32,000 nucleotides of DNA from NCBI RefSeq assembly GCF_001457595.1, contig NZ_LN831039.1:5190001-5222000 (forward strand). The letters run 5' to 3'. The translations under genes and the position numbers were made by a program. How positions within the stretch are numbered: position 1 is the first letter of the stretch; each line of letters begins with the position of its first letter. This document shows positions 9,713-26,564 of the stretch, piece after piece. This stretch comes from Mycolicibacterium smegmatis. Its GTDB lineage: Bacteria; Actinomycetota; Actinomycetes; Mycobacteriales; Mycobacteriaceae. The notes below the pieces were generated by a model. It did no database searches and had not been told where the DNA came from. It saw only the letters and a list, made by a program, of their open reading frames with translations.

Positions 9713-9906
9713 GGCTCAAACCTATCCGTCTGCCTGCCGTGCGGCATGCCAATGACACGATTCATCAACGCGATCCGGGTCGGCACGAGTTCGGTTTAAC
9801 CAAAATCAGCGCGCTACAAACGTCGAACAGAACACCGCTCGGTTCTCTGTCACGATCTCGGTGATCGCCTATGCGTGGGGGCCCGCTCACCATTACCGTT
9901 CCAGAT

Positions 9907-11070
9907 ATGCGGGTGGCCATGATGACTCGGGAGTATCCACCCGAGGTGTACGGCGGAGCAGGCGTTCACGTGACCGAGCTGGTCGCTCAACTCCGAAAAT
10001 TGTGCGACGTCGACGTGCACTGCATGGGCGCCCCGCGCGACGGGGCATACGTGGCGCATCCAGACCCGGCGCTGCGCGGCGCCAATGCCGCGCTGACAAC
10101 GTTGTCGGCGGACCTGAACATGGTGAACAACGCCGAGGCGGCGACCGTGGTGCATTCCCACACCTGGTACACCGGCCTGGCGGGCCATCTCGCGTCGCTG
10201 CTGTACGGCGTCCCGCACGTGCTCACGGCGCACTCGCTTGAGCCCTTGCGGCCGTGGAAGGCCGAACAGTTGGGCGGCGGTTACCGCGTGTCCTCGTGGG
10301 TCGAGCACACGGCCGTCGAGGCCGCCGACGCGGTCATCGCGGTGAGCTCGGGCATGCGCGACGACGTGCTGCGCACGTACCCCGCGCTGGATCCCGACCG
10401 GGTGCACGTGGTGCGCAACGGCATCGACACCACCGTCTGGTATCCCGCGGAGCCCACTCCCGACGAGTCGGTGCTCGCCGAACTCGGGGTGGACCTCAAC
10501 CGGCCGATCGTCGCGTTCGTCGGACGCATCACGCGCCAGAAGGGTGTCGCGCACCTGGTGGCCGCCGCGCACCGGTTCGCGCCCGAGGTGCAGCTGGTGT
10601 TGTGCGCGGGCGCCCCGGACACGCCGCAGATCGCCGAGGAGGTGTCGTCAGCGGTGCAGCAGCTCGCGCAGGCGCGCACCGGGGTGTTCTGGGTGCGCGA
10701 GATGCTGCCGACGCACAAGATCCGGGAGATTCTCTCGGCAGCAACTGTTTTCGTATGCCCGTCGGTGTACGAACCACTGGGCATCGTGAACCTGGAAGCG
10801 ATGGCGTGCGCCACGGCCGTGGTGGCCTCCGACGTCGGGGGCATCCCCGAGGTCGTCGCCGACGGGCGCACCGGCCTTCTGGTGCACTACGACGCGAACG
10901 ACACCGAGGCCTACGAGGCGCGTCTGGCCGAAGCGGTGAACTCGCTGGTGGCCGATCCGGACAGAGCCCGCGAGTACGGCATCGCAGGCCGCGAGCGGTG
11001 CATCGACGAATTCTCGTGGGCACACATCGCCGAGCAGACGTTGGAGATCTACCGCAAGGTGTCTGCCTGA
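9907..11070 (+). CDS. glgM: GT4 glycosyltransferase, alpha-maltose-1-phosphate synthase GlgM (annotated glgA in older annotations; Rv1212c-like)
   Basis: MRVAMMTREYPPEVYGGAGVHVTELV... matches the Rv1212c N-terminus as I recall it, so the start is ATG 9907 rather than the track start 9871. E-x7-E region EPLGIVNLEAMACATAVVASDVGGIPEVV. Confidence 0.93.
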   Translation: MRVAMMTREYPPEVYGGAGVHVTELVAQLRKLCDVDVHCMGAPRDGAYVAHPDPALRGANAALTTLSADLNMVNNAEAATVVHSHTWYTGLAGHLASLLYGVPHVLTAHSLEPLRPWKAEQLGGGYRVSSWVEHTAVEAADAVIAVSSGMRDDVLRTYPALDPDRVHVVRNGIDTTVWYPAEPTPDESVLAELGVDLNRPIVAFVGRITRQKGVAHLVAAAHRFAPEVQLVLCAGAPDTPQIAEEVSSAVQQLAQARTGVFWVREMLPTHKIREILSAATVFVCPSVYEPLGIVNLEAMACATAVVASDVGGIPEVVADGRTGLLVHYDANDTEAYEARLAEAVNSLVADPDRAREYGIAGRERCIDEFSWAHIAEQTLEIYRKVSA

Positions 11071-12456: not shown

Positions 12457-13416
12457 CTAGCGCGGACGCAGCGTGGTCATCGGCGGGCGGTCGGCCAGGG
12501 ACACCGAGGACACCCGAGGGGTGAAGTCGTCGCCGTCGGCGAAGAACTGCGTGAGCCCGACGCCCGAGTCGGAGATGCCGCAGCGCGACAGCAGCGTCGC
12601 GATGACCTGGCGACTCATCGAGGCCAACTCGGTCAGCGGCCGGTTGCGATGGGCCCGCACACCCAGGTTGACCTGCGCGATGCCGTCCAGGCCCAGCCGG
12701 TCGTAGGTGTCGACCAGCAGGCCGATCTCGACGCCGTAGCCGGGTGCGAACGGCACCGACGTGAGCAGTTCGCGGGTGCCCGCGTACTCGCCACCCAGCG
12801 GCTGCAGCACGCAGTTGAGTTCGGGACGCAGCGACGCCAACAGCGGACGGGCGACGAGTTCGGTGACGCGCCCGCCACCGTTGGCGTCCTCGGCACCGCT
12901 GACCTTGAGCGGCCTGCGGTAGAAACCCTTGACCAGGTGCACACCGTCGCACGTCAGCAGCGGTCCCAGCAGCTTCGGGACGAACATCGGGTCCGGGTCG
13001 ATCAGATCGGAGTCGACGAACGCGATGATGTCGCCCGTCGTGGCGGCCAGCGAGCGCCACAACACCTCGCCCTTGCCGGGCTGCGGCGGCACCTCGGGCA
13101 GCGCGGCCTCGCGGCTGACCACCTTGGCCCCCGCGGCGACAGCGCGGATCTCGGTCTCGTCGGTGGAACCGGAATCGAGCACGATCAGCTCGTCGACCAG
13201 GCCGCCGAGCAGCGGTTTGATGGTCTCCACCACCGAGCCGACGGTTTCTTCCTCGTTGAGCGCGGGCAACACGACCGACACGGTGCGACCGGCTTTCGCG
13301 GCCTCCAGGTCGGCGACCGTCCACGACGGCCGGTTCCAGCTGTGGTCGGTCAGCCAACGGTGCCCCACAACCCCGTCCTGAACCAGATCTGCGACGGTCA
13401 GAGGTATCGCTGTCAT
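12457..13416 (-). CDS. gpgS: glucosyl-3-phosphoglycerate synthase (GT81)
   Basis: MTAIPLTVADL...WNRPSWTVADLEAAKAGRTVSVVLPALNEEETVG...LIVLDSGSTDETE...FVDSDL matches Rv1208. Start ATG 13416 overlaps the folP2 stop (ATGA). The 75-codon upstream extension of the track ORF lies inside folP2. Confidence 0.93.
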   Translation of the reverse strand: MTAIPLTVADLVQDGVVGHRWLTDHSWNRPSWTVADLEAAKAGRTVSVVLPALNEEETVGSVVETIKPLLGGLVDELIVLDSGSTDETEIRAVAAGAKVVSREAALPEVPPQPGKGEVLWRSLAATTGDIIAFVDSDLIDPDPMFVPKLLGPLLTCDGVHLVKGFYRRPLKVSGAEDANGGGRVTELVARPLLASLRPELNCVLQPLGGEYAGTRELLTSVPFAPGYGVEIGLLVDTYDRLGLDGIAQVNLGVRAHRNRPLTELASMSRQVIATLLSRCGISDSGVGLTQFFADGDDFTPRVSSVSLADRPPMTTLRPR

Positions 13417-14288
13417 GCCAGTCCCCTCACTGTTCGTGCGGGCTTCCGCACTCCCTGAATCGACGCGACCATTTCGAGCACGCGCCGAGTGGGCCCCACC
13501 TCGTGTACCCGGAACATGGCTGCTCCATCCGCGGCGGCAAGCGCTGTTGCGGCGAGCGTCCCTTCCAGGCGTTCGGTCAGGTCCACACCGAGAGTCTCCC
13601 CGACAAAATCCTTGTTGCTCAGCGCCATCAGGACCGGCCATCCGGTATTAACAAGATCTTTTACGTGGCGCAACAAACTAAGACCGTGATAAGTGTTTTT
13701 GCCGAAATCATGGGTCGGATCGATGAGGATCCGGTCGCGCTGCACACCCGTTGCCACGGCCCGCTCGGCGGCAGCGGTCACCTCCGCGATCACGTCGTCG
13801 ACCACACCGCGCTCGCTGATGCCGTAGTTCACCCGGAACGGCCGCGTGCGCGGCGTCGCGCCGCCCGTGTGTGAGCACACCAGGCCCGCGCCGAACTCGG
13901 CGGCCACCTCGGCCAGACCTGGGTCGGCGCCGGCCCAGGTGTCGTTGATGATGTCCGCGCCCGCCGCGCACGCCTGCTTGGCGACGGCCGCGCGCCACGT
14001 GTCGACGCTGATCAACCGGTCGGGGAAGGTGCTGCGCAGCCACTCGATGAACGGGACGACGCGCGTGATCTCCTCTTCGGCGTCGACGTTGCTGCCGGGG
14101 CCCGCCTTGACGCCGCCGACGTCGATGACGTCGGCACCTTCGTCGATCACACGGTGCGCGGCGGCCTTGGCTGCCTCGTCGGTGAAGGTGGCGCCGCGGT
14201 CGTAGAACGAATCGGGTGTCCGGTTGACGATCGCCATGATGAGGGCACGGTCGTGCGCCACCGGACGACCGCAGAACGTCGAGAACAC
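13413..14288 (-). CDS. folP2: dihydropteroate synthase paralogue FolP2
   Basis: Pterin-binding domain motifs IMAIVNRTPDSFYDRG, DVIDVGGVKAGPG and INDTWAG. GTG 14288 is preceded by GGAGG. Rv1207 position, upstream of and overlapping gpgS. Confidence 0.9.
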   Translation of the reverse strand: MFSTFCGRPVAHDRALIMAIVNRTPDSFYDRGATFTDEAAKAAAHRVIDEGADVIDVGGVKAGPGSNVDAEEEITRVVPFIEWLRSTFPDRLISVDTWRAAVAKQACAAGADIINDTWAGADPGLAEVAAEFGAGLVCSHTGGATPRTRPFRVNYGISERGVVDDVIAEVTAAAERAVATGVQRDRILIDPTHDFGKNTYHGLSLLRHVKDLVNTGWPVLMALSNKDFVGETLGVDLTERLEGTLAATALAAADGAAMFRVHEVGPTRRVLEMVASIQGVRKPARTVRGLA

Positions 14289-16824: not shown

Positions 16825-18915
16825 ATGCCAGTCGACTGGGTGATCGCTCCTCATGACCGCGCACTCGACGGCGTTGAGGCCGGCCTGCACGAACGCAGCG
16901 GTGCGGTGCTCATGGGCCCCGAAGGCGTCGGCAAGACCTCGCTGGCCCGCAGTGCCGCGGAATGGCTCGGGCCGGAGTTCCGCCGCATCGTGCGGGTGAC
17001 CGGCACCGAGTCCAACGCCGCCGTCCCGTTCGGGGCCGTCGCGAACCTGATCGACGTGTCGCCCTCGGGTCGCACCGCCGACGTGATGCGCGCGGCGCGC
17101 GAGTCCCTGGGTTCCGAGCTTCTTCTCGTGGTCGACGACGCGCATCTGCTCGATCGGTTGTCGGCGGCGCTCGTGTACCAGCTCACCGAGAGCGGCGCGG
17201 CCAAGCTGATCGCCACAGCGACCGTGGACCGCGCTGTGCCAGAAGAGGTCTCGGCGCTGTGGGATGAGGGCCTGCTGGCCCGCGTCGAGGTGTCACCCCC
17301 GGGTTACGACAGTGCGCGCCTGGCCGATCAGGTGGCGGCCTACATCGCCGATCTTCCGCCCGCGGCGATCCAGACGCTGCAGTATCTCGCGGTGCAGGAT
17401 CCGCTGCCGCTGACCGACGTGACAGCGCTGACCTCGGCCGACACCGTGGCCCAGGCGTGCGAGGCCGGTGCGGTGGTCCTCGACGAGGACGCCGAGCAGC
17501 CCATGGTGCACTGCCGTCATGTGCTGTTCCTCAACGCCGTTCGCGCCAACGTCGGCGGCCCCGGTCTCCGGCGCCTGCGCACGGCCGTCGTCGAACAGAT
17601 GGCCAAGACTCCGCGACGTGGTGTGGTGGACCGGTTGCGCCACGCCGTGCTCGCGCTGGACTCCGACGTGGCGGTGCCCACCGAGGACGTCGTCACCGCG
17701 GCCGCGGAGGCGCTGCGACTCGGCGACCTCGAACTCAGCGAGCGACTGGGCCGCGCCGCACTGCAGGTCGACGGCGGGTTCCAGGCACGGCTGACGCTGG
17801 CCTATGCGCTGGGCTGGCAGGGTCACGGACGCGAGGCCGAGGACGTGCTCGCCGAGGTCGATCCCGCGACGCTGGACGAGGCCTCGCTGATGGCGTGGGC
17901 GCTGCCGCGCGCGGCCAACCAGTTCTGGATGCGTTCGGAGCCCGAGCGTGCGGTGGCCTTCCTGCGCACCACGCGCAACCGCGTGCAGACCGCACACGCC
18001 CAGGTCACCCTCGACGCCCTGCTCGCGACGTTCACCATGAACTCTGGAACCCCGTCGCGCGCACTGGAACTCGCACACCAGGTGCTGGAGTCTCCCGACG
18101 CCGACGACACCGCCGTCGGTTGGGCCGCGTCGACCGCCGCGCTCAGTTCGGCGCGCATCGGCCGGTTCGACGACGTCGACGCGCTGGCCCAGCGCGCCAT
18201 CGATGCGGGCCATCCCGGATTGCTGCGGTTCACCAGCGGATTCGGCCAGACCACGTCGCGGCTGCTTCGCGGGTCTCTCGACGAGGCCGAGGTGCTGGCC
18301 CGCCAGCTCACCGATTTCGCGCAGCTGCTGCAACCCGGCCGCGCCATCGGCGAGGTGCTGCTGGCCGACGTCCTCATCGTCCGCGGACAGCTCGACGAGG
18401 CGGTTGCGTTGTTACGCAGGGCCACAGCCACTTTGGCGCCGACCGGGTACTCGTGGGGCCCGCTGGCGTGGATGTTGTTGGCGCAGGCGCTCGGTCAGCG
18501 CGGCATGCCCGTCGAGGCCGGAAAGGTGCTGTCCCGCGCGGAATCCCGGCACGGCCTCAAGTCCATGCTGTTCGCCCCCGAACTCGCACTCGCGCGAGCC
18601 TGGACCTGCTTTGCCCGCAAAGACCCCGTCACCGCCGTTGCCGGGGCCCGCGAGGCCGCGAAAGCCGCCGAGCGTGGCGGGCAGTCCGCAGTCGCGCTGC
18701 GCGCCCTTCACGACGCCGTGCGGCTCGGCGACACCCGCGCGGCCGATGCACTCGCCCGCATCGACCTGACCTGCACGTTCGCCGACGTCACGCGGGCCCA
18801 TGCCGCCGCGCTCACCGCCGGCGACGCTTCCGCGCTGAACGACGTCGCTGCCCGCTACCGCAACCTCGGCATGCACGCCGCCGCAGCCGATGCGCTGCGT
18901 CAGGCGGGTGGGTGA
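16825..18915 (+). CDS. P-loop (STAND/AAA-like) ATPase with long helical-repeat C-terminal region, Rv1204c-like; no LuxR-type HTH detected
   Basis: Walker A GPEGVGKTS and Walker B-like LLLVVDDAHLLD, then about 500 aa of Ala/Leu-rich helical repeats like the sensor arm of LAL/MalT regulators. The protein ends ...AARYRNLGMHAAAADALRQAGG without the usual C-terminal LuxR HTH. Confidence 0.8.
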   Translation: MPVDWVIAPHDRALDGVEAGLHERSGAVLMGPEGVGKTSLARSAAEWLGPEFRRIVRVTGTESNAAVPFGAVANLIDVSPSGRTADVMRAARESLGSELLLVVDDAHLLDRLSAALVYQLTESGAAKLIATATVDRAVPEEVSALWDEGLLARVEVSPPGYDSARLADQVAAYIADLPPAAIQTLQYLAVQDPLPLTDVTALTSADTVAQACEAGAVVLDEDAEQPMVHCRHVLFLNAVRANVGGPGLRRLRTAVVEQMAKTPRRGVVDRLRHAVLALDSDVAVPTEDVVTAAAEALRLGDLELSERLGRAALQVDGGFQARLTLAYALGWQGHGREAEDVLAEVDPATLDEASLMAWALPRAANQFWMRSEPERAVAFLRTTRNRVQTAHAQVTLDALLATFTMNSGTPSRALELAHQVLESPDADDTAVGWAASTAALSSARIGRFDDVDALAQRAIDAGHPGLLRFTSGFGQTTSRLLRGSLDEAEVLARQLTDFAQLLQPGRAIGEVLLADVLIVRGQLDEAVALLRRATATLAPTGYSWGPLAWMLLAQALGQRGMPVEAGKVLSRAESRHGLKSMLFAPELALARAWTCFARKDPVTAVAGAREAAKAAERGGQSAVALRALHDAVRLGDTRAADALARIDLTCTFADVTRAHAAALTAGDASALNDVAARYRNLGMHAAAADALRQAGG

Positions 18916-18987
18916 ATTCGCGCGTTTCGCGGCTTTTGCCCCGCTTTAGACTGATCGTGCCGTATGCGTTTGGGAGGGGGCGCTGCG

Positions 18988-21276
18988 ATGGGTGCGCTTG
19001 ACGGGTTCTATTCGACGTGGAACAAGGCCCGTGAAACCTTCGGGCAGGGAGCGCCGACCGATGGTTCGCAGTTCGACCAGAGCCGCAGCCTCACGCAGAT
19101 GAAGGCCAGCGTCGAGGCCGCCGCGCCCGACGACCGCTGGCAGGGCTCAGGCGCGAACGCCTACGCCGCAGCCAACAAAGAGCACGCGCAGGTCTATCAG
19201 AAGCTCGCCGACCTCGACCAGAAGATGGCCGCCGAGGTCAAGAACGCCGCCAACGTCGTCTCCGCCGGGCGCACGAACCTCGACAACGCCAAGAGCTGGG
19301 TCGAAGGCATGGCCAATTCCCTGCCCGCCACCAGCCAGCAAGACCGCGAACGCAAGCTCATCCCGATTGCCCGCGAAGGCATCAACCGCGTCGACAACAT
19401 CGTCAAGTCCGCGACTGCGGACATGATGGGGATCAAAGGCAACGTCGAAAAGCTCCGCGGCGAGTACGACACCATCAAGACCACGATGCGGTTCGGGCCG
19501 GAAAGTGAGAAGAAGCCCGGCGACAAAAAAGACGACGCTCAGATGCTTGGGAATGAGGAAAAGGACGACGACGGCATCCCCGAGATGCACGCGCCGAGTA
19601 CAGAAGACCAAGCTCGGATGGACGTCGAGCAGGTGCTGTCCGAGGGTGACGGTGGCGCCGCGGAACGTGTGGACGAGGTCCTCAGCTCGATCAAGCCGGG
19701 AGATGAGTTGACTCCCCAACAGGACGCTTATTTGAGCGAGATGCAGCGTCAGCAGAAGGGAATGAGCGTAGAGGATCTCAGAGCCGCCGAACAGCGCCTC
19801 GGTGACCACAAGAACGTCATCGCGGACTCGTGGCAGTTGATGAGTAACGACGATGTCGAATACTCCGCCGGCGCTGGTGACGACAAGAAGGGAGCCGCAT
19901 CTCAGCTGCCCGACAGCGTTCAGAAAGCACTCACGAATGCCGGTGACACATGGCCGATCGGCGACGGCATCGGCCAGCTCCGTTATGAGGGAGACCTCAA
20001 AGCCATCTCGGAGATCGTCAAGGACGGCAATCCGGGTTTCCAGACGGGCACGGAGCTCGACCGCCAGCTCATTGTCGCTGCGGACAAGGCCATGGATGCG
20101 CGCGACATCCCAGGCGGCCAGATCCTCGGTCGGGAATCAACTGTCCAGAGCTTGTTCGAAGCAGTCGACGATGACCACCAGATCATCAACGACCACTTGA
20201 TGGGCAGGAATGGTGTCGACGTTGACGATTTCCTACGCGATGTGAACACGACCGACTGGCCGGATAACGGGAAGGCAGCTGGCTATCTTTTCAGCTGGAC
20301 CAATGAGGCCAGTTCAGGACCTGAGGCTGAGATCGCGGCCCAAACAGCCGATAAATACGCGGAATTCATTGGAGCTCATACGCATGGGGAACCGACGCCT
20401 CAGCCTGACCTATTGAACATCAATGGCCAGACGTTAGGCCAGCTCAACCCTGAACTCGTCCAGCGGTACGCGCATGGACTAATCCCCTATGTGGACGACA
20501 TGGGTGGTATCGGTGACGCGGACAAGTTTGAGATCGACGGTGGTGATCTCCGACGGGACGGATTGATGCCCAATGCAAAGGGGGTCTTCGCAGTGTTAAA
20601 TACGGATCCCGTCGCCGCAACGGAGATCAACGCGCGGGCATACGAGATTGCGATGGAGAGAGAGACTAGCTTCGCGACGAACCCTAAGGATCCTTCGGCC
20701 CAGGCGCATCTTTATGCGGCAGCAACCATGCGAGGTCTGGTCGATGTGGGAGCACACGAGGCGTTCCAAGCCTTCAAAGAGAACGGGTATGACGCGGGAG
20801 TCGATCAGACAGCATGGAAGAAGGCGGGCTTCGATGCCGCTGTGACAGCCGTGAGCACCGGGGCGTCAGTGATTCCCGGGGTGGGTTTCGTTTCCGGCCC
20901 AACGGTTGCACAGATCGGCTCGATCTTCAGCAACGAAATGTTCGATAACGCTCCTCCGCCTGTAGATCGACCTCTTCCGGAAATGTCGACCACACGTGCC
21001 AGCCACCTGATCCTTGATGCGATGCTTGCCGCCGGCAATCCTTTGACCCTCCCCGAAGGATGGGTCGACTACACCGATCCAGAACGTCCTCGTGTCGTCC
21101 AGCCCCCAGGTGTGAACGACGACGTCTATGCCAGCACCATCAACGCACAGGTTGGCGAGCAAAGCGTTGCAGTCGATGCGAAGGGGCCTGACCAGTTCTA
21201 CGCGGACCGCTACAACAATGTCGCTCAAGATATAGACATCCAACACACCCCGCCCCAGGAGGAACGACACCAGTGA
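18988..21276 (+). CDS. 762-aa protein: EspA/EspE-like WxG helical-hairpin N-terminus + charged linker + ~550-aa C-terminal region of unknown function (putative type VII secretion substrate)
   Basis: ATG 18988 is preceded by GGGAGGGGG (18972-18980) at 7 nt; track start 18964 is the alternative. W-Q-G at aa 51-53 (19138-19146) sits in the context RWQGSGANAYAAANKEHAQVYQKLADLDQKMAAEV, which I recognise as EspA/EspE-like (recollection, needs HMM confirmation). K/D/E-rich linker GPESEKKPGDKKDDAQMLGNEEKDDDG. I found no catalytic motif in the remainder. The coding call is solid; the functional call is tentative. Confidence 0.75.
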   Translation: MGALDGFYSTWNKARETFGQGAPTDGSQFDQSRSLTQMKASVEAAAPDDRWQGSGANAYAAANKEHAQVYQKLADLDQKMAAEVKNAANVVSAGRTNLDNAKSWVEGMANSLPATSQQDRERKLIPIAREGINRVDNIVKSATADMMGIKGNVEKLRGEYDTIKTTMRFGPESEKKPGDKKDDAQMLGNEEKDDDGIPEMHAPSTEDQARMDVEQVLSEGDGGAAERVDEVLSSIKPGDELTPQQDAYLSEMQRQQKGMSVEDLRAAEQRLGDHKNVIADSWQLMSNDDVEYSAGAGDDKKGAASQLPDSVQKALTNAGDTWPIGDGIGQLRYEGDLKAISEIVKDGNPGFQTGTELDRQLIVAADKAMDARDIPGGQILGRESTVQSLFEAVDDDHQIINDHLMGRNGVDVDDFLRDVNTTDWPDNGKAAGYLFSWTNEASSGPEAEIAAQTADKYAEFIGAHTHGEPTPQPDLLNINGQTLGQLNPELVQRYAHGLIPYVDDMGGIGDADKFEIDGGDLRRDGLMPNAKGVFAVLNTDPVAATEINARAYEIAMERETSFATNPKDPSAQAHLYAAATMRGLVDVGAHEAFQAFKENGYDAGVDQTAWKKAGFDAAVTAVSTGASVIPGVGFVSGPTVAQIGSIFSNEMFDNAPPPVDRPLPEMSTTRASHLILDAMLAAGNPLTLPEGWVDYTDPERPRVVQPPGVNDDVYASTINAQVGEQSVAVDAKGPDQFYADRYNNVAQDIDIQHTPPQEERHQ

Positions 21277-21960
21277 TGCCACGACTTAGCAGAGGGCTGC
21301 TGGCGCTTTTCCTCCTGGGTTTGCTTGCCGCCTCCGCGTGTAGGGCAGAAGGCGCCGAACCGCCGGAATCACCGCCTGCAGGTTGGCCCGAGTCGTTGGA
21401 TGACTTCACCGTGACGTGGACCGCCGAACCGGGGATCGATTTGACCACTGGTCCAGCAGTTGCGGCGCGGGCTTATATGGAGTCCTACTACCTCGCATAC
21501 CTGACAACCGACGACAAGTACCTGTATCCGGGGTTTGCACAAGCCGTCGACTCCAATCAGGCCGACGGGCCTGATGGCACGGAGAAGCTCTGGCCAGAAC
21601 CTTATCGTCCGAAGACGTGGATTGGTACGGCACGCCATCACATACTGCGAATAGATCAGTCAGGTCGCGACGTCGCAGTTGTGGGTTGTGTGTATTCGTA
21701 CTCGAGCGCCGAGAAGACAGATGCGGGATTCGAAGCCAACATCGGTGGAACCGGACCGGACGCAGGAATTAGCGCGATCCGTATCGGTTTAGAGGCTCCC
21801 GAGAACAGTGCCGATCTTCCAGTACAAGAAGGACCGTCTCGGGCGCCGTTCGAGAATGTATTTGGTGGGTGGAGGGTGACCAATCATCAGGGCGGATTCC
21901 TTGCTACAGCTGAATGGCCGGACCACGCCAAAGACGTCGAACAATGTGTTGCTCAGGCGC
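19400..21960. other. lower-GC, rare-codon block covering the C-terminal ~2/3 of the EspA-like gene and most of the lipoprotein gene
   Basis: Hand counts of printed 60-nt lines inside the block: 19501 = 50%, 20281 = 58%, 20341 = 52%, 21601 = 50%, 21901 = 57% G+C. Outside the block: 18001 = 67%, 19141 = 65%, 22021 = 72%, 22441 = 75%. In-frame TTA/CTA/ATA codons occur here (e.g. cta ttg ... acg tta at 20410-20436; gat ata gac near 21231; cac ata ctg cga ata at ~21637-21651). Such codons are rare in the surrounding genes. Boundaries are approximate. Confidence 0.55.
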
Positions 21961-22085
21961 CAGAACCTCCGGAAGCCCGGACTTTCATCCCGACAAGCCC
22001 GTACCCTCGGTCTGCCTTCCCAGTGCTTCCCGCGACGCCAGGCTGGCCGGCAAAGCCAGATGCACCCACCGACCAGCCCGGCTGA
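21273..22085 (+). CDS. putative secreted lipoprotein of unknown function, translationally coupled to the EspA-like gene
   Basis: Signal peptide MMPRLSRGLLALFLLGLLAASAC with a lipobox-like ASAC (Cys23). GTG 21273 overlaps the upstream stop (GTGA), and ATG 21276 is the alternative. AGGAGGA lies at 21257-21263. Pro-rich C-terminal tail. I recognise no family. Confidence 0.75.
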   Translation: MMPRLSRGLLALFLLGLLAASACRAEGAEPPESPPAGWPESLDDFTVTWTAEPGIDLTTGPAVAARAYMESYYLAYLTTDDKYLYPGFAQAVDSNQADGPDGTEKLWPEPYRPKTWIGTARHHILRIDQSGRDVAVVGCVYSYSSAEKTDAGFEANIGGTGPDAGISAIRIGLEAPENSADLPVQEGPSRAPFENVFGGWRVTNHQGGFLATAEWPDHAKDVEQCVAQAPEPPEARTFIPTSPYPRSAFPVLPATPGWPAKPDAPTDQPG

Positions 22086-22165
22086 GCACGATCAAACTCC
22101 CGCACACCCCTCCCCCAACCCAGCCGTAAAATTGCACCTGGCATGCACGACCCGAGGGGACTCCG

Positions 22166-22981
22166 ATGAACCAGGTGATCGCCAATACCGGCGCCATGAA
22201 CAGCTGGCAGCAGCAGCTGGGTGAGGTCAGCTCGGGTGTCGGCAATCTGCTCAATGGTACTCCCGGCGTCTCCGATGTGATGAACACGCACGGCACCATC
22301 GGGTTCCCGATGCAGAGCGCGTTCGACGCCGCACATGCCGCCCGAGGTGGCGCGATGGGTGCGACGCAGGCCGCGTCGTCGAAGATTTCCGACTTGCTGC
22401 GCCAGGCTGCTCAGGCCTACGAGCGTGGCGACGTCGCCGCGGCCGACGACCTGAAGAAGCGGGCCGAGCAGCTGGAAGGCGCGGGTGCGTCGTCGGCGGC
22501 CGGTGGCAGTGCCGCAGGCAGCGCGGCCTCGGCCGCGAGCAGTGGTGGCCAGGCCGCGTCGCAGATGATGAGCCAATTCGGCCAGATGGCGGGTCAGATG
22601 GCGCAGTCGCTGACGCAACCCATCCAGGGCATGGCCCAGAGCCTCGGCCAGATGCCGCAGCAGATCTTCCAGGGTGTGCAGGGCATCGTGCAGTCCGCCA
22701 CCGAGGGCGCCGGGGGCGGGTTGGAAGCGGCGACGGCCGCCGCAGGTGGCGCCGAGGCCGAGAACGCCATCAAGACCGCCGCGACCGATGGTGCGGGTGG
22801 CGGCGAGGGTGAGCGTGCCCCGGTCGACGCCGCCGACAAAGACAAGACCGACGAGCGCGACAAGACGACCGATGCCGTGCAGGTCGGCGCCCGCGCCGAC
22901 ATCGGCGTGCCGGCCGAGGAGCAGCCGGGTGTCGGCGCGGTGTCGACGCAGATCCCGACGATCAGCCCACGGCCGCAGTAG
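22166..22981 (+). CDS. EspC-like (T7SS_ESX_EspC/DUF2580-type) protein with YxxxD motif and Ala/Gly/Gln/Met-rich low-complexity tail (putative type VII secretion substrate)
   Basis: ATG 22166 with GAGGGGA 5 nt upstream. The N-terminal ~100 aa (...VMNTHGTIGFPMQSAFDAAHAARGGAMGATQAASSKISDLLRQAAQAYERGD...) parallels EspC (...THGPY...LRIAAKIYSEAD...) as I recall it. Y85-E-R-G-D89 (22418-22432) fits YxxxD/E. The tail has QMAGQMAQSLTQPIQGMAQSLGQMPQQIFQG repeats and an acidic end GERAPVDAADKDKTDERDK. Confidence 0.75.
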   Translation: MNQVIANTGAMNSWQQQLGEVSSGVGNLLNGTPGVSDVMNTHGTIGFPMQSAFDAAHAARGGAMGATQAASSKISDLLRQAAQAYERGDVAAADDLKKRAEQLEGAGASSAAGGSAAGSAASAASSGGQAASQMMSQFGQMAGQMAQSLTQPIQGMAQSLGQMPQQIFQGVQGIVQSATEGAGGGLEAATAAAGGAEAENAIKTAATDGAGGGEGERAPVDAADKDKTDERDKTTDAVQVGARADIGVPAEEQPGVGAVSTQIPTISPRPQ

Positions 22982-25900
22982 CGGAGAGTGCGTCCAACGC
23001 GGCTGCGACCTTGCGACGGTAGCTCTCGACGTTGGCCATCTTGATCGACTCGTATCCGCGCACTTCCTGGGCGAGGCCGAGAATTTCGCGGATGGCATCG
23101 ATGTTGCCCTGCGTGGCGCGCGGCACCACCTCGCGGGTCAGCTTCGCGTAGTCGTCGACGAGTGACCGCTCGACCTGACGCACGTGGGCATAGCCGAACA
23201 CGTCCAGTCGGGTCCCCCGAACACGCCGTGCCGTCCGCAAGGCGTACAGCGCCGGCTTGAACCACGCCCCCAAGGTCAGCTTGTGGTCCAGGCCCATCGC
23301 CCGGAGCATCGGCGGGTGCAGTTTGTACGCGAAAGACGCGTCATCGCCGAAGGTTTCACGGACGGACTGTTCGAAGCCCGGATCGAGGAACAGCCGCGCG
23401 GTTTCGTATTCGTCCTTGTACGCCATCAACTTGTACATCGACTCCGCTGCTGTGACGGTGAGCGGCCCGACCGATCCGACGGCGTGGCGCTCCAGCTCGG
23501 CCGTGTCGGCGACGAAGTTCACGAACTGTAGCGCATAGGACTGGTTCTGATAGGCGACAAGGTCGGCGGCCAGAAAGCCGAGGCGGTCCCGGAAACCCTC
23601 GTCGACGCCGCGTAATTCGTGGACGGCGCGACGCACTCGCCGCGCCACTCGGACGTGGTTGGTGTACACCCCTTTCAGAGCGTTGACCGGTTGCGGATCG
23701 TGCACGTACGCGCGGCCGACGTGAAGCGCCCTGAGGTTCGCCGAAACCGCCACCCCGTTGAGTTCGACCGCTTTTTCGAGCGCCGACAGCGGGATGGGCA
23801 GTGATCCAACCTGCACGGCCATACCCACCAGAATCATGTTGGCCAACTGGTCGGATCCGAACTCCCGGTGTGCGAGTGCACGAACGTCGGCGTACAGCGA
23901 ATCGTGCGCCCTGGTGGACGGATCCAGCCGCTCGCGGACCTCGGCGGCCGAGGGGAACGCGGTCGACGGCTTCAGGATCATCGAACCCGTCGGCACCTGG
24001 GATGTCGAGATCACCGCGACGGTACGCGAATTCGACGCGACGGCAAGGCTCTTGGCGTCAGCTGCAACAAGAAGATCGCATCCCAGATACAGATCGCACT
24101 CGTCGGCTGCGAGTTTGTTGGTACCGGTGATGGGGCGTGTCGAGAACTTGAGATCTGACACCACGGCACCGCCCTTCTGGGCGAGGCCGAGCTGGTCGAG
24201 TCCGCGGACGTGGAACCCGGCCAAAGTACCTGCGGTGGCGACGATCTGAGAGGTGGTGACCACGCCGGTGCCGCCGACACCGGTGATGCGGACGTTGAAT
24301 GCGTCGGTGCCGACGATGGGTGTGGGCTCCGGGATGGGACGCGTGGCAGAAGTTTCACTCGATGCCGTACGCCCGGGTCGGACCGCGACGAACGACGGGC
24401 AGTCGCCGTCCAGGCAGGAGTAGTCCTTGTTGCACGAGGCCTGATCGATCCTGGTCTTGCGGCCGAACTCGGTGTCGACTGGCTGCACGGACATGCAGTT
24501 CGACTTCTGTCCGCAGTCACCACAGCCCTCACACAGGCGTTCGTTGATGAACGCGCGAGTGACGGGTTCGGGCGCGAGCCCGCGCTTGCGTTTGCGGCGC
24601 AGTTCGGTCGCGCATTCCTGGTCGTGGATGAGCACGGTGACCCCGGCGGTCGCTGCCAACTGTTCCTGCACCGCCATCAACTCGGACCTGTCGAGAACGG
24701 CGACGCCTTCCGGCAGCGACACCTTGCGGTACTTCTTCACATCGTCGGTGGTGATGACGACGCGGGCGACGCCTTCGGCCAGAAGCTCCTGAACGATCTG
24801 CGGCACCGACATTTTGCCCACGGCGCGTTGTCCACCGGTCATGGCGACCGCGTCGTTGTAGAGCAGTTTGTAGGTGATGTTCACCCCGGATGCGACGGCG
24901 GCCCGGATGGCCAGGCTGCCCGAATGATGGAATGTGCCGTCACCGAGATTCTGGAACAGGTGATTCTCGGACACGAACGGCGCCATGCCGATCCACGGGG
25001 CACCCTCGCCGCCCATCTGGCAGAGACTCACGATCTCCCCCACCCGCTCATGCGGCATCATGGTCGCGATTGCGTGACAACCGATTCCGGCGCCCACAAG
25101 GGACCCGTCGGGAACGACCGTGGACCGGTTGTGTGGGCAGCCGGAGCAGAAGTACGGCGTCCGTGTCAGCAGCGGCAGTTCGATACGCCCCGCGGGTGTT
25201 CTCTCGACCGATGACACGCTCTCGATCTGGTTGGCGGGGAGCACCTTTCGAATTCGCCGGCCGAGCTTCTCGGCGAGGATTTCGGGCGGCAGGTCGGCGT
25301 CGGCGCGCAGGAACCCGCGGCCGTGCTCGTCGCGTTTTCCCAGAACCCGCGGAACGGAGGCCCGTCCGTACAAGGCGTCTTTGACGGCCAACTCGATGAA
25401 CGCCCGTTTCTCTTCGACGACGACCACTTCGTCGAGCCCTTCACTGAACTCTTGGACGTGCCGTTGGTCCAGCGGGTTGATGACACCGAGCTTGAGGATG
25501 CGGATGCCGGAGTGGACCAGATCGGTCTCTGCGATGCCCAGACGCTGCAGCGCCTGCACGGTGTCCCGGAAACCTGTGCCCGCGGTGATGATTCCGAGCT
25601 TGGCGTCCGGGTCGCCGACGGTTCTGTTCAGATCGTTGGCGGCCGCGTACCGACGCGCGAGTTCCAGCCGCTCACCGAACATGCTTCGTTCGAGGTTGCC
25701 GAGCGTCGGTTGCACGAAGTGCGCCGAGACGGTGTGGCGGAATTCGGCGCCGTCGATCTCGCGGTCGGGACTCTGCACCGTGACCCGGCTGCGGTCGAAA
25801 CGAACGGTGGCCGACCCGTCCACGACGTTCGTCGCGAGTTTCATGCCTACCCACAGCCCGCTGAACCGGGACATGGCGATGCCGTGCAGGCCGAAGTCGA

Positions 25901-26447
25901 GTACTTCCTGCGGATCTGACGGGACGAGCACGGGAAGCCCGAGTTCGGCCATCGCGGCCTCGGAGCCGCTGGGCACAGTCGACGACTTGGCGATCGAGTC
26001 GTCACCCACGAGGACCAGTGCTCCACCCTTGGCGTCGGCACCACCGAGATTGGCGTGGCGCAGTGCGTCGGTGGCCCGATCCAGCCCGGGTGCCTTGCCG
26101 TACCAGATGCCGACGACGCCGTCGTATTCACAGCTCGGCGATGCCGAGGCGAGCTGGGAACCCTGGACCGCGTTCGCGGCGAGCTCCTCGTTCAGCCCGG
26201 GCTGGAACACGACCGAGTGCGAATCGAGCAATTCCCGTTGCCGCCCGAGCTCGAGGTCGTAACCCGCCAACGGTGAACCCTCGTAACCGCTGATGAGGAT
26301 GCCCACCCGCTGCCCGTCCGCGGAGTCACGGCGGCTCTGTTCGAAGGGAATTCGGACCAATGCCTGCAAACCGGTCAGGAACACCTCACCGTCGGCAAGG
26401 GTGTATCGGTCCGTGAGAGCGAACTCTCGTGAGTGCAATTCGGTCAC
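22962..26447 (-). CDS. fused indolepyruvate:ferredoxin oxidoreductase-family protein (IorA+IorB-like 2-oxoacid:ferredoxin oxidoreductase)
   Basis: About 1161 aa. TPP-binding motif GDGTFHHSG and two Cys clusters, CEGCGDCGQKSNC and CNKDYSCLDGDCPSF (4Fe-4S). IorB-like C-terminal half. I prefer GTG 26447 (VTELHSREFALTDRY, G-rich SD just upstream). The track start 26528 adds 27 non-conserved residues. Confidence 0.9.
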   Translation of the reverse strand: MTELHSREFALTDRYTLADGEVFLTGLQALVRIPFEQSRRDSADGQRVGILISGYEGSPLAGYDLELGRQRELLDSHSVVFQPGLNEELAANAVQGSQLASASPSCEYDGVVGIWYGKAPGLDRATDALRHANLGGADAKGGALVLVGDDSIAKSSTVPSGSEAAMAELGLPVLVPSDPQEVLDFGLHGIAMSRFSGLWVGMKLATNVVDGSATVRFDRSRVTVQSPDREIDGAEFRHTVSAHFVQPTLGNLERSMFGERLELARRYAAANDLNRTVGDPDAKLGIITAGTGFRDTVQALQRLGIAETDLVHSGIRILKLGVINPLDQRHVQEFSEGLDEVVVVEEKRAFIELAVKDALYGRASVPRVLGKRDEHGRGFLRADADLPPEILAEKLGRRIRKVLPANQIESVSSVERTPAGRIELPLLTRTPYFCSGCPHNRSTVVPDGSLVGAGIGCHAIATMMPHERVGEIVSLCQMGGEGAPWIGMAPFVSENHLFQNLGDGTFHHSGSLAIRAAVASGVNITYKLLYNDAVAMTGGQRAVGKMSVPQIVQELLAEGVARVVITTDDVKKYRKVSLPEGVAVLDRSELMAVQEQLAATAGVTVLIHDQECATELRRKRKRGLAPEPVTRAFINERLCEGCGDCGQKSNCMSVQPVDTEFGRKTRIDQASCNKDYSCLDGDCPSFVAVRPGRTASSETSATRPIPEPTPIVGTDAFNVRITGVGGTGVVTTSQIVATAGTLAGFHVRGLDQLGLAQKGGAVVSDLKFSTRPITGTNKLAADECDLYLGCDLLVAADAKSLAVASNSRTVAVISTSQVPTGSMILKPSTAFPSAAEVRERLDPSTRAHDSLYADVRALAHREFGSDQLANMILVGMAVQVGSLPIPLSALEKAVELNGVAVSANLRALHVGRAYVHDPQPVNALKGVYTNHVRVARRVRRAVHELRGVDEGFRDRLGFLAADLVAYQNQSYALQFVNFVADTAELERHAVGSVGPLTVTAAESMYKLMAYKDEYETARLFLDPGFEQSVRETFGDDASFAYKLHPPMLRAMGLDHKLTLGAWFKPALYALRTARRVRGTRLDVFGYAHVRQVERSLVDDYAKLTREVVPRATQGNIDAIREILGLAQEVRGYESIKMANVESYRRKVAAALDALSATAAVG

Positions 26448-26564
26448 TGTCCCCCCTTGAAGAGCCGTTATGTATATGAACGTGTCAGAGCCGCGGAAAC
26501 ACCGAAGTGGCTGAACCCAATTCTGCACGCAGCCGGTACGAGACCTCGGTGAAGCACCTGAGCC

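Follow-up and report, generated by a model that had tools for sequence, protein, structure and literature searches.

Organization of the locus

We analysed a window of 32,000 nucleotides (the whole stretch of DNA, to which all positions refer) from Mycolicibacterium smegmatis. The genes and features of interest are:

16825..18915, + strand: left-flank ATPase gene (696-aa P-loop ATPase with a TPR-like C-terminal region)
18988..21276, + strand: gene 1 (762-aa EspA/EspE-family ESX substrate-like protein)
18988..19430, + strand: putative N-terminal trafficking module, gene 1 aa 1-148, at host GC3 (0.86-0.94)
19039-19287, + strand: EspA_EspE domain within this module
19138-19146, + strand: WxG motif (W51-Q-G) of this module
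19430..19490, unstranded: junction J1, boundary of shared N-terminal module and cargo, first GC3 step
19672..20298, + strand: TPR_23 domain, EspA-like TPR repeats (PF23275), intermediate GC3 of ~0.75
20251..20328, unstranded: junction J2, within-species recombination breakpoint, second GC3 step
20311..21273, + strand: allele-specific cargo (mid and C-terminal domains), GC3 0.62, all-helical
20311-20787, + strand: mid domain of gene 1, part of this cargo
20791-21252, + strand: C-terminal domain of gene 1, part of this cargo
21273..22085, + strand: gene 2 (270-aa lipoprotein-like partner, candidate immunity)
22086..22091, unstranded: junction J3, right edge of the swapped module
22166..22981, + strand: gene 3 (271-aa EspC/EspF-like helical partner with an Ala/Gly/Gln-rich tail)
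22418-22432, + strand: YxxxD secretion motif (Y85ERGD) of gene 3

Gene 1 starts at the ATG at 18988 behind a GGGAGG Shine-Dalgarno sequence, which yields 762 aa, and its product is 100% identical to M. smegmatis protein P0001. It begins with a helical WxG domain and a linker, continues with TPR_23 and a mid domain, and ends in a C-terminal domain that is variable. Pfam matches were obtained to PF18879 (91.5 bits, cutoff 27) and to PF23275 (176.8 bits, cutoff 27), the latter over aa 237-445 and profile positions 7-234 of 234. The N-terminal module contains WxG, and a motif scan found no YxxxD/E in it. The AlphaFold2 model of the cargo is all-helical (pLDDT 92, pTM 0.91), with a Gly-rich hydrophobic hairpin at aa 617-647 (hydropathy peak 1.56).

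Gene 2 is translationally coupled to gene 1, as its GTGATG start, preceded by AGGAGG, overlaps the TGA of gene 1. Its product has a signal peptide and a lipobox cysteine (Cys23); of 89 homologues, 90% or more keep this residue, and two cysteines are invariant among them. The protein is modelled with an alpha+beta fold (AlphaFold2, pLDDT 92.7), which gave weak NTF2-like matches only.

The locus is chromosomal, contains no phage genes and lies far from any esx cluster, amid dap, fol and fad housekeeping genes. Its conserved right flank is gene 3, whose product is 95-99.6% identical across haplotypes and matches PF10824 with 86.6 bits (cutoff 23.5); YxxxD is present in 23/23 EspC-like partners. 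The 696-aa ATPase gene is the conserved left flank. Every M. smegmatis haplotype has it at this site, as does M. wolinskyi (L043, L083) at the orthologous one, and in ~12 other loci a shorter relative precedes the gene 1 homologue. The ATPase is STAND/LuxR-N-terminal-like (Pfam AAA_22, AAA_16 and TPR_14; GC3 0.86); its NCBIfam match is limited to the AbsR2 N-terminus, and domain searches detected no HTH.

Composition of the exchanged block

An earlier note on this DNA had placed a compositional breakpoint inside gene 1, followed by a low-GC block from 19400 to 21960. All of its 11 quoted 60-nt GC values were reproduced (0.63-0.67 at 18001, 19021, 19141 and 19201; 0.50-0.58 at 19501, 20281, 20341, 21601 and 21901; 0.72 at 22021 and 0.75 at 22441). 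Among all 2.56-kb intervals of the 32 kb (mean GC 0.669, sd 0.024), 19401-21960 is the lowest, at 0.586. The 60-nt lines average 0.586 inside 19400-21960 vs 0.677 outside (Mann-Whitney p=6.5e-16). The rare codons TTA, CTA and ATA, which the note had remarked upon, make up 9 of 890 block codons (~10 per 1000) vs 1.6 per 1000 in the background. The GC, GC3 and CAI analysis that it had proposed shows that the block differs strongly in composition and codon usage from a background of 21 genes (8133 codons; GC3 0.858, CAI 0.61-0.80):

Gene 1 aa 1-150: GC3 0.86, CAI 0.69
Gene 1 aa 151-440: GC3 0.75, CAI 0.55
Gene 1 aa 441-770 (as tabulated): GC3 0.62, CAI 0.42
Gene 2: GC3 0.59, CAI 0.39
Gene 3: GC3 0.85, CAI 0.71

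Hence, the breakpoint is present, but as two steps rather than a single drop, with GC3 falling from 0.86 to 0.75 at ~aa 150 and to 0.62 at ~aa 447. Likewise, the low-GC block is real but ends at 22091, 6 bases past the gene 2 stop, instead of at 21960.

The note had regarded this composition as foreign. The difference from the background holds; yet low GC3 characterises the pool of cargo and partner genes throughout the family. Across 55 homologous genes from other species, GC3 is 0.84 for the N-terminus, 0.72 for TPR, 0.675 for mid plus C-terminus and 0.65 for the partner, and in 100% of cases the N-terminus has a higher value than the partner. The low GC3 therefore does not necessarily imply that the block was imported once from a foreign donor. 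Probably, cargo and lipoprotein genes form an exchangeable pool with a lower GC3 of its own, which would explain the two-step break.

Exchange between haplotypes

The GC3 steps coincide with recombination junctions that emerge from comparison with other M. smegmatis strains. At J1, nucleotide identity to the second cassette of haplotype L003 is 0.97-1.0 up to 19430 and 0.3-0.5 thereafter. The aa 1-148 module is 97-100% identical between the two, and past aa 150 amino acid identity falls to 13-33%. Because this cassette, in which three lipoprotein genes follow, has only aa 1-150 in common with gene 1, it places a junction at the linker, where the earlier note had drawn its upstream boundary. 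At J2, the window matches haplotype L001 perfectly over 18985-20234, with 4 mismatches in 20235-20250 and dense mismatches from 20329. The two gene 1 products are 100% identical to ~aa 447, including the entire TPR_23 region, and 36-77% identical from there through the C-terminus, while their gene 2 products are 59% identical. At J3, identity to both L001 and L003 returns at 22092, 6 nt past the gene 2 stop, at 97-99.7%. The window and L001 haplotypes sit at the same chromosomal site and are both common (at least 24 contigs each; 35 and 68 index blocks).

The back half of gene 1 and the lipoprotein gene are a unit that is swapped between strains by recombination. This is the pattern that the note had expected from alignments, with identity collapsing over the C-terminus and lipoprotein and recovering just upstream of gene 3. 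The locus is also rearranged in other ways: L001 carries an IS-bearing segment in place of the second effector of L003, with two orphan lipoprotein genes remaining, cassette arrays occur in L005, L031 and L047 as well, and L004 has partial duplications. At the block itself, a tRNA search and a repeat search found no nearby tRNA and no meaningful flanking repeat, and the neighbour genes include no integrase or transposase, in agreement with the note. Since the junctions lie in homologous sequence and bear no mobile-element signature, its preference for recombinational replacement over a mobile element is borne out.

An alternative explanation might be that there was no exchange at all and that a fast-evolving, weakly expressed block diverged in situ, its GC3 lowered by relaxed codon selection. 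The family-wide low GC3, which gives no proof of recent foreign import, would fit, as would the failure to find a near-identical donor (the best non-smegmatis relatives are 55-68% identical). However, divergence in place is contradicted by the step-like identity profile. Against L001, 1250 consecutive identical bases give way to ~55-70% identity within ~80 nt, the return to high identity takes place within 6 nt of the gene 2 stop, and a different junction, at aa 150, appears against another cassette. Moreover, the L004 duplications and the IS-mediated replacement in L001 indicate active rearrangement, and the N-terminus is uncoupled from the phylogeny of cargo and partner. We consider this explanation extremely improbable.

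Pairing and domain shuffling in relatives

Among about 80 related loci, a lipoprotein gene comes immediately after each of the large (~750-aa) proteins (67/67); it belongs to the gene 2 family in 53 cases and encodes a 'mid-like' lipoprotein in 14. When distance matrices are compared, the lipoproteins correlate with the C-terminus (r=0.90), mid domain (0.89), TPR (0.79) and N-terminus (0.27), and controlling for the C-terminus leaves a partial correlation of 0.01 with the N-terminus. Divergence of the lipoproteins thus follows the C-terminus, not the N-terminus.

The N-terminal module is 57-77% identical to N-termini on other cargos in at least 10 species. At the orthologous site of M. wolinskyi, the same domain (77% identical) carries an alpha/beta-hydrolase (Abhydrolase_8); a different lipoprotein gene and the same EspC-like gene lie downstream. 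This type of N-terminus is found on at least four other C-termini as well, with their own downstream lipoprotein or small membrane-protein gene where the contig continues. Conversely, other N-termini, namely Hydro_N_hd (PF22905) and phage WXG100-type ones, can precede the TPR_23-mid-C cargo. The 322-aa type in L001 is a Sec-exported lipoprotein paralogue of the mid domain, which would be unexpected if the mid domain alone were toxic in the periplasm.

Homologues in mycobacteriophage genomes lie close to lysis or integration modules. Phage Aegeus gp36, gp35 and gp34 are annotated as WXG100 protein, WxG100-family domain protein and polymorphic toxin immunity protein; gp35 is the large gene 1 homologue, and gene 2 is 31% identical to gp34. 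Similarly, prophiT37-1 gp104 is 36% identical to the second effector of L003, and the gp105 lipoprotein is 45% identical to the lipoproteins of that cassette. Both gp35 and gp104 contain TPR_23 and the mid domain.

The earlier note had pointed to polymorphic toxin/immunity systems, and the architecture does resemble them in its swapped C-terminus and lipoprotein, their covariation and the reuse of the N-terminus. The structure prediction and fold search that it had proposed for the C-terminus, however, matched no known toxin domain or fold: the cargo hit no toxin family in Pfam, NCBIfam, PHROGs, PDB sequences, PDB folds or BFVD, and the fold search of PDB and BFVD gave no match with E<0.6. Its sequence relatives are confined to this mycobacterial family.

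This raises the question of whether the locus might instead serve non-lethal self or kin identity, where an exported variable helical domain and a surface lipoprotein act as ligand and receptor, could gate conjugal transfer or cooperative behaviour, and retain allelic diversity by balancing selection. Pfam and fold searches found no catalytic toxin domain, and the C-terminus variants are mostly diverged versions of one homologous helical domain rather than unrelated folds, as in recognition proteins; this last point also runs counter to an effector, for which unrelated toxin domains might be expected. Furthermore, the mid-domain lipoprotein paralogues suggest homotypic interactions, covariation of C-terminus and lipoprotein suits any co-evolving binding pair equally well, and M. 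smegmatis already has a polymorphic ESX-1-linked identity gene, Msmeg0070 (PMC9040860). Yet the same N-terminal domain and locus frame carry a hydrolase with its own lipoprotein in a sister species, which follows an effector-immunity logic, not one of recognition. Orphan lipoprotein genes kept after effector loss, and their tandem arrays, are typical of immunity accumulation, and the phage homologues lie in cassettes annotated as polymorphic toxin-immunity, a class whose members, from other sequence families, are toxic without the immunity gene (PMC10654092). We regard a role in kin identity as unlikely.

Comparison with known systems

The locus is probably of the same kind as the prophage PEST cassettes (2021, 2023) and the Eat system (2026). 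Eat of M. abscessus (Benedict et al., Nat Commun 2026, PMC13444075), which is ESX-4 dependent, comprises the GH183 arabinanase toxin EatA, the lipoprotein inhibitor EatI and the helical partners TapA1/A2. Eat-like loci are numerous in Mycobacteriales, cargo function is unknown in 47% of them, and envelope-acting toxins are accompanied by lipoprotein or transmembrane immunities (PMC13444075). Each locus encodes a T7SS substrate of mycobacteria, predicted in our case, in which a helical N-terminal carrier is joined to a cargo of 400-1000 aa, together with a small helical partner and a lipoprotein directly downstream. They differ in that our locus has an EspA/EspE Pfam N-terminus, an all-helical TPR_23-mid-C module instead of a glycoside hydrolase, and a 270-aa gene 2 product with a possible NTF2-like alpha+beta fold instead of a 16-kDa EatI. 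ESX-4 dependence, toxicity and inhibition are described for Eat, whereas for our locus toxicity and inhibition are predictions. The Eat paper makes no mention of EspA, EspC or TPR (PMC13444075). The position of the small partner differs as well: the EspC-like gene lies downstream here, whereas the two Tap genes of Eat, and the small partners of PEST, lie upstream, which fits an effector less well.

The closest PEST examples are Aegeus gp36-gp35-gp34 and prophiT37-1 gp103-gp104-gp105, which follow the same three-gene scheme as our locus: a large protein whose N-terminus is of T7SS type and whose C-terminus varies is accompanied by a small helical partner and by a downstream partner that co-varies with this C-terminus. 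PEST toxins exert toxicity when their immunity genes are absent (PMC10654092), and the PEST papers describe recombination both within components and between them. Reports of PEST systems come almost exclusively from M. abscessus-chelonae prophages; our locus, in contrast, is chromosomal, lies between housekeeping genes and occurs in M. smegmatis and other Mycolicibacterium species, with an EspA/EspE-type N-terminal domain instead of PEST1-3 types. A tblastn search detected no homology to the experimentally tested PEST toxins (prophiGD43A-6, prophiGD17-1).

LXG toxins with their Lap partners and immunity arrays (Bacillota T7SSb; for example TelC/TipC, EsaD/EsaG, TspA/TsaI) likewise combine a helical N-terminal carrier, small helical partners, a variable C-terminal cargo and, for envelope-acting toxins, membrane or surface immunity; tandem non-identical immunity genes shaped by recombination are reported there too (PMC9484751). 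Our locus would belong to T7SSa (ESX) rather than T7SSb, and a diderm envelope makes a 'periplasmic' lipoprotein immunity expected here, unlike in LXG hosts. Membership of LXG, Rhs or CDI, which the note had named as models, is rejected; a Pfam search detected no LXG domain.

Msmeg0070, a mating-identity (kin recognition) gene of the esx1 locus, is also a highly polymorphic ESX-associated gene of M. smegmatis, a species with genomes that are mosaic from distributive conjugal transfer (PMC9040860). It differs in being a proline-rich single-pass membrane protein of unrelated sequence within esx1, and no effector-partner cassette structure has been described for it.

[quoted passage not shown] EspA/EspC (Rv3616c/Rv3615c) and EspE/EspF of M. 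tuberculosis and M. marinum are co-dependent ESX-1 substrates; EspA and EspE have a length of ~390-400 aa and are known for their link to virulence rather than as modular effectors. None of these ESX-1 substrates of pathogens is known to be antibacterial, which counts against an effector role here. The resemblance is close, as gene 1 aa 1-445 contains the complete domain pair PF18879 and PF23275, gene 3 has an EspC domain with YxxxD, and EspA-like and EspC-like genes share one locus. The differences are ~320 additional C-terminal residues, the intercalated lipoprotein gene, the lack of espD and the within-species polymorphism.

Hence, genes 1 and 3 might encode structural or accessory ESX substrates, EspA/EspC- or EspE/EspF-like, of an outer machinery or surface structure anchored in the envelope by gene 2, whose exposed C-terminus and lipoprotein diversify under phages or predators that use them as receptors. 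In line with this explanation, EspA_EspE, TPR_23 and EspC matches over gene 1 aa 1-445 and gene 3 aa 2-98 exceed curated thresholds, the Esp pairs are co-dependent substrates, and the phage homologues could also reflect superinfection exclusion at the receptor. It leaves unexplained, however, the fusions of the N-terminus to unrelated cargos such as Abhydrolase_8 with private downstream lipoproteins, the multi-copy cassettes and the orphan lipoproteins, and the locus is distant from the esx clusters. A structural role therefore seems doubtful to us.

A probable polymorphic effector-immunity locus

Genes 1-3 probably constitute a chromosomal polymorphic ESX (type VII) effector-immunity locus of M. 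smegmatis, in which toxicity is our interpretation; the labels 'toxin' and 'immunity' derive from the architecture and from the annotation of phage homologues. The EspA/EspE-type helical domain of gene 1 with its WxG and the gene 3 product with its YxxxD may together form a two-part ESX secretion signal. The rest of gene 1, i.e., TPR_23, mid domain and C-terminal domain, would be the cargo, a presumed toxin with a target in the cell envelope. The exported lipoprotein of gene 2 would be its cognate partner, most likely an immunity protein by which the producing cell neutralises the effector in its own periplasm or cell envelope. Cargo and lipoprotein are swapped as a unit between strains and cassettes via homologous recombination, anchored on the left by the conserved N-terminal and TPR-coding sequence and on the right by the region upstream of gene 3.

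Gene content of the locus

The genes of the locus and the gene directly upstream are as follows:

16825–18915, upstream gene: 696-aa P-loop ATPase with TPR-like repeats
18988–21276, gene 1: 762-aa EspA/EspE-like protein, its ATG preceded by a GGGAGG site
21273–22085, gene 2: 270-aa lipoprotein, its GTGATG start overlapping the gene 1 stop, with an AGGAGG site ahead
22166–22981, gene 3: EspC/EspF-like protein with an EspC domain

An M. smegmatis protein matched the gene 1 product at 100% identity. In the numbering of the 770-aa ORF, its Pfam scan returned only EspA_EspE (PF18879, aa 26–108; 91.5 bits against a cutoff of 27) and TPR_23 (aa 237–445; 176.8 against 27), both far over threshold, and a sub-threshold DUF4226. 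The ~320 residues past TPR_23 were assigned to no family. The EspC domain of gene 3 (PF10824) scored 86.6 bits against 23.5, and NCBIfam gave no match for genes 1–3. Gene 1 has a WxG motif without YxxxD/E, and YxxxD is present in gene 3, as in each of the 23 EspC-like relatives found. Such a division of the two motifs over two proteins is typical for paired type VII substrates, and ESX would export the products of genes 1 and 3 as a pair. The signal peptide and Cys23 lipobox of gene 2 were assigned by inspection and alignment; among 89 gene 2 homologues the lipobox cysteine is kept in at least 90%, together with two invariant cysteines.

The last part of gene 3 (aa 100–271, window 22460–22981) is an apparently disordered tail of ~170 residues rich in Ala, Gly, Gln and Ser. 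Classical EspC/EspF is 103 aa long and lacks a long tail of this kind. Partners of 250–310 aa at other loci suggest that the tail is conserved across the subfamily. Gene 3 and a convergent ORF (22962–26528, minus strand; 1188 aa, ferredoxin-oxidoreductase-like) overlap at their 3' ends by 20 nt (22962–22981), leaving no terminator space between the two. The neighbourhood further contains dapD/dapE, ABC-F protein, ferredoxin oxidoreductase, fadD6-like, folP-like and glycosyltransferase genes, a content that resembles the Rv1201c–Rv1212c region of M. tuberculosis (dapD/dapE, fadD6-like, folP-like, glycosyltransferase). A literature search by the presumed locus tags MSMEG_5088–5099 returned nothing relevant.

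A two-step break in composition

The earlier note described a compositionally foreign block at 19400–21960, comprising the C-terminus of gene 1 and the lipoprotein gene. All of its hand-counted GC values were reproduced. The mean GC of 60-nt lines was 0.586 within the block and 0.677 outside it (Mann-Whitney p = 6.5e-16), the overall GC of the window being 67%, and 19401–21960 is the lowest-GC 2.56-kb window in all 32 kb. The in-frame TTA, CTA and ATA codons that the note had pointed to are enriched ~6-fold. Amino-acid composition can be ruled out as the source of the drop, which sits in GC3, that is, at synonymous positions (see table). The codon-adaptation index, built from the same background genes as the GC3 baseline, changed in parallel along the block, from 0.69 to 0.42 and 0.39, and went back up to 0.71.

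GC3 along the locus (baseline 0.858 over 21 background genes)
Gene 1, aa 1–150: 0.86
Gene 1, aa 151–440: 0.75
Gene 1, aa 441–770: 0.62
Gene 2: 0.59
Gene 3: 0.85

Because GC3 steps from 0.86 to 0.75 and then to 0.62 inside gene 1, the compositional break is a two-step one. The block is thus low in GC as claimed, but it does not end at 21960, since the break runs to the gene 2 stop. The same gradient was found in 55 homologous genes, with a GC3 of 0.84 in the N-terminus, 0.72 in the TPR region, 0.675 in the mid plus C-terminal domains and 0.65 in the partner gene; the N-terminus exceeded the partner in 55 of 55. Hence, the ‘foreign’ composition is a standing trait of the exchangeable gene pool and not the sign of a single recent import. 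The deviation from background codon usage was rightly noted.

Among the background genes, the only stretch with a GC3 as low as the block (0.55) was the first 100 codons of the family-2 glycosyltransferase ORF at 12457–13641 (minus strand). This mechanically called ORF is too long at its 5' end (window 13400–13641), where it is probably non-coding; other assemblies annotate a gene of 303–319 aa.

Exchange of cargo and lipoprotein within M. smegmatis

Copies of the chromosomal site in other strains were reached via P0002, an M. smegmatis homologue with 83% identity. All M. smegmatis strains found share a common frame of ATPase gene, variable segment, EspC-like gene and convergent oxidoreductase gene, and the contents of the segment between the ATPase and EspC-like genes vary from strain to strain. 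Compared with the locus L001 (CP102342.1), the window is identical in nucleotides over 18985–20234, falls to ~45–70% identity from 20329 through gene 2, and is back at 97–99.7% from 22092, six bases past the gene 2 stop. At the protein level, aa 1–447 of gene 1 are 100% identical and the remainder only 36–77%, and the two lipoproteins share 59% identity. The second cassette of locus L003 shares with the window only the upstream 127 nt and aa 1–150 (97–100%), the remainder being 13–33% identical. In line with what the earlier note anticipated, identity to L001 collapses in the C-terminus and lipoprotein gene and is kept in the N-terminus and on the gene 3 side, and the comparison with L003 places the N-terminal boundary near aa 150. 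The step-like identity profile rules out divergence in place.

Both junctions inside gene 1 (J1, ~19430–19490; J2, 20251–20328) coincide with its two GC3 steps, so that the composition break falls on recombination junctions. With the right-hand junction J3 at 22086–22091, the lipoprotein gene is exchanged as a unit with the cargo, by which we mean gene 1 beyond its N-terminal module (TPR_23, mid domain and C-terminal domain; TPR_23-mid-C).

The window haplotype, represented for example by CP089233.1, is a single cassette. Like the L001 haplotype, it is common in public assemblies, and neither of the two has the lipoprotein type of the other. L003 contains a second cassette, and L001 contains orphan lipoprotein genes. 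In L001 (14437–18054), an IS-bearing segment that contains PRiA4_ORF3, ISL3 transposase and IS3-family transposase genes stands where L003 (14434–17501) has the second effector gene and the first of its lipoprotein genes; one 5'-truncated and one intact lipoprotein gene are left as orphans. These ISL3 and IS3 transposases in other haplotypes are secondary insertions inside the locus. The absence of an integrase, transposase, tRNA target or flanking direct repeats, reported in the earlier note, was upheld for the window. A mobile-element island is ruled out, as there is no tRNA, repeat or integrase.

Another M. smegmatis locus, L004 (UGQO01000002.1), carries at 8313–9928 a frameshifted, truncated window-type gene 1, 99% identical as far as window nt 19890. 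Next come a duplicated ATPase 3' end, starting at window nt 18224, and after it the other allele; this arrangement represents a tandem-duplication stage on the way to allele replacement. The middle of the ATPase gene itself (window 17000–17800) shows a dip in identity to L001, to 91–97% between flanks of 99–100%. This separate mosaic patch suggests further recombination tracts at the locus.

Covariation and domain shuffling across the family

Relatives of gene 1 number more than 200 at full length (720–820 aa), nearly all from Mycolicibacterium or Mycobacterium, and gene 2 has 160 relatives, without a Pfam domain. We scanned one genome per species, which gave 79 loci, and annotated these with HMMs built from the two families. 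A partner gene lies directly 3' of every large TPR plus mid protein (67/67), encoding a gene 2-family lipoprotein in 53 cases and a lipoprotein of a second class in 14. The second class consists of lipoproteins of ~310–340 aa that are paralogous to the mid domain of the effector itself, with ~30% identity to gene 1 aa 400–589 and with the W-x-D-x-G and N-P motifs kept. They were found at the following loci, some loci holding both types:

L001, 13212–14180: second-class (mid-like) lipoprotein
L011, L013, L017, L020, L027–L029, L040, L045, L051, L053–L055, L059 and L082: second-class (mid-like) lipoproteins

These mid-like lipoproteins may be decoy-type immunity proteins or homotypic interaction partners. 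Arrays of lipoprotein genes occur at L005, L031 and L047. The EspC-like partner lies on the 3' side at the window locus and upstream in L008, L009, L015, L017, L024 and L031.

Apart from this strict adjacency, lipoprotein and cargo covary. Across 42 pairs, lipoprotein distances correlated with those of the C-terminus (r=0.90), the mid domain (r=0.89) and the TPR region (r=0.79), and far less with those of the N-terminus (r=0.27). When controlled for the C-terminus, the partial r of the N-terminus was 0.01, which indicates that the N-terminal domain is uncoupled from the co-inherited unit of cargo and lipoprotein.

N-termini and cargos are also shuffled combinatorially. The N-terminal domain (57–77% identical) is joined elsewhere to Abhydrolase_8 (PF06259, an alpha/beta-hydrolase) and to at least four other C-terminal types, and each of these fusions has a private lipoprotein or small membrane-protein gene downstream wherever the contig continues. 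The hydrolase fusion occupies the orthologous site in M. wolinskyi (L043, 9971–13078), flanked by the same ATPase and EspC-like genes, and in Mycolicibacterium sp. 050232 (L083, 10001–13201). In L043 it is followed by a gene for a 205-aa lipoprotein (IGGC lipobox) and then by the EspC-like gene; L083 has the EspC-like gene as well, and between it and the fusion the ORF filter kept no ORF. Conversely, TPR_23-mid-C cargo is also joined to other N-termini, namely PF22905 in species of the M. gastri group and WXG100-type ones in phages. The plasmid collection gave a single distant match, in Mycobacterium sp. JS623.

The 2.3-kb contig L067 (DATDLP010000332.1), labelled as a Croceibacterium sp. MAG, contains the ATPase gene plus codons 1–117 of gene 1 with 97% identity. 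Although binned as alphaproteobacterial, it is almost certainly an M. smegmatis fragment placed in the wrong bin. A comparable case is the gene 2 homologue P0126, whose label reads Arthrobacter sp. SLBN-53.

Two observations bear on what the pair does: siblings with a hydrolase cargo occupy the same locus frame, and orphan lipoproteins are retained. A non-lethal kin-recognition pair would have a precedent in the same species, Msmeg0070 (PMC9040860), but both observations speak against it. They also disfavour an EspA/EspC-like structural complex at the cell surface, diversifying under pressure from phages. The locus is best read as a polymorphic effector-immunity locus of ESX, chromosomal in location and belonging to a kind established only recently, in which the cargo would be a toxin, the lipoprotein its immunity protein, and the target would lie in the envelope.

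Predicted structure and possible mode of action

AlphaFold2 predicted gene 1 aa 400–770 to be all-helical (90-sequence alignment; pLDDT 92, pTM 0.91), and Foldseek of this model against PDB and BFVD gave no match under E=0.6. Sequence searches of PDB with the gene 1 N-terminus, the gene 1 C-terminus, gene 2 and gene 3 returned no real relatives, and PHROGs gave no match for genes 1–3 or the 322-aa mid-like lipoprotein of L001. A phmmer search with the gene 1 C-terminus against 1.84 billion representatives recovered only the same mycobacterial family and, besides it, two long repeat proteins. The latter, P0275 (1833 aa) and P0308 (1597 aa), matched the query in 11 separate stretches each, and may consist of repeats of a sub-motif of the domain or be low-complexity artefacts.

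Hence, Pfam, NCBIfam, PHROGs, PDB (sequence and fold), BFVD and phmmer gave no toxin domain or fold for the gene 1 cargo. With no recognizable fold, the cargo may have an envelope target that is as yet unexplored. A Gly-rich hydrophobic helix-hairpin-helix at aa 617–647, kept in the sister allele, is compatible with membrane insertion. The gene 2 model is alpha+beta (pLDDT 92.7); its matches to NTF2-like/SnoaL folds in PDB were weak and non-significant (E 0.07–0.7), at most a hint of resemblance. That the partner is an exported lipoprotein with disulfide bonds suggests a site of action beyond the cytoplasmic membrane.

Relation to known systems

EspA/EspE proteins are ~390–400 aa long. Up to the end of TPR_23, gene 1 has the complete EspA/EspE domain set, and with the EspC domain of gene 3, all above gathering thresholds, the two genes resemble the EspA/EspE plus EspC/EspF pair of ESX-1. 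Unlike EspA/EspE, which ends after the TPR region, gene 1 continues for ~320 aa.

The locus has several features of the polymorphic toxin-immunity systems of Zhang et al. (2012; PMC3482391): a conserved N-terminal trafficking domain with variable C-termini; an adjacent 3' partner that covaries with the C-terminus, making gene 2 the candidate immunity gene; exchange of the C-terminus together with this candidate immunity gene (J1–J3); and orphan cassettes or arrays (L001, L003, L005, L031, L047). As to a toxin domain or fold, the gene 1 cargo had no match; sibling fusions carry Abhydrolase_8. The earlier note's comparison with LXG, Rhs and CDI was sound in its logic but not as to membership, since the Pfam scan of gene 1 showed no LXG domain, Rhs/YD repeats, or CdiA FHA repeats with VENN and CdiB.

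Distant homologues were found by tblastn in two phage groups, Aegeus and prophiT37-1. Aegeus encodes gp36 (WXG100), gp35 (759 aa, TPR_23) and the lipoprotein gp34, which is annotated ‘polymorphic toxin immunity protein’ and has 31% identity to gene 2. In prophiT37-1, gp104 has 36% identity to the second effector of L003, and the lipoprotein gp105 has 45% identity to the lipoproteins of that same second cassette. Here as well, effector type and lipoprotein type travel together. Prophage cassettes of this sort were described by Dedrick et al. (2021; PMC8092301) and, as PEST systems, by Abad et al. (2023; PMC10654092), who found two members, of other sequence families, to be toxic in M. smegmatis once the immunity gene was removed. 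PEST cassettes lie at a prophage site near the attachment junction (PMC10654092); the M. smegmatis locus has homologous cassettes in Aegeus and prophiT37-1 but differs in its housekeeping neighbours and in lacking an integrase and tRNA.

The first inter-mycobacterial T7SS toxin, EatA, is ESX-4-dependent and has a lipoprotein inhibitor (Benedict et al., 2026; PMC13444075). That study describes many comparable loci whose cargos have no known function, and reports that toxins acting on the envelope come with lipoprotein immunities; it does not mention EspA, EspC or TPR proteins. By domains and motifs, genes 1 and 3 resemble the helical N-terminal carrier and small helical T7SS-motif partner of these Eat-like loci. 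The lipoprotein signal of gene 2, assigned by inspection and alignment, agrees with the downstream lipoprotein or transmembrane immunity that they encode for envelope-acting toxins.

Implications

T7SS-mediated competition among mycobacteria was shown only in 2026, for one effector. The present locus is of interest for its unrecognized cargo fold, for its second, decoy-like lipoprotein class and for its direct architectural link to EspA/EspE and EspC. It is conceivable, though we consider it rather unlikely, that TPR_23-mid-C is a new, fold-unrecognized, envelope-acting antibacterial effector, possibly membrane-inserting via its Gly-rich hydrophobic hairpin; that two unrelated lipoprotein classes neutralize it, one being a decoy paralogue of the mid domain; and that EspA/EspE, the virulence substrates in M. 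tuberculosis and M. marinum, descend from this interbacterial weapon family by truncation of the cargo. The family-wide GC3 gradient is a simple signature that could locate carrier-cargo junctions in other ESX effectors.

The locus resides in a tractable, standard laboratory species with at least two common, naturally incompatible haplotypes. Since neither has the lipoprotein type of the other, reciprocal killing and protection experiments are simple to design. The locus thereby offers a tractable, non-pathogenic entry to the old question of the role of EspA/EspC-type ESX substrates.
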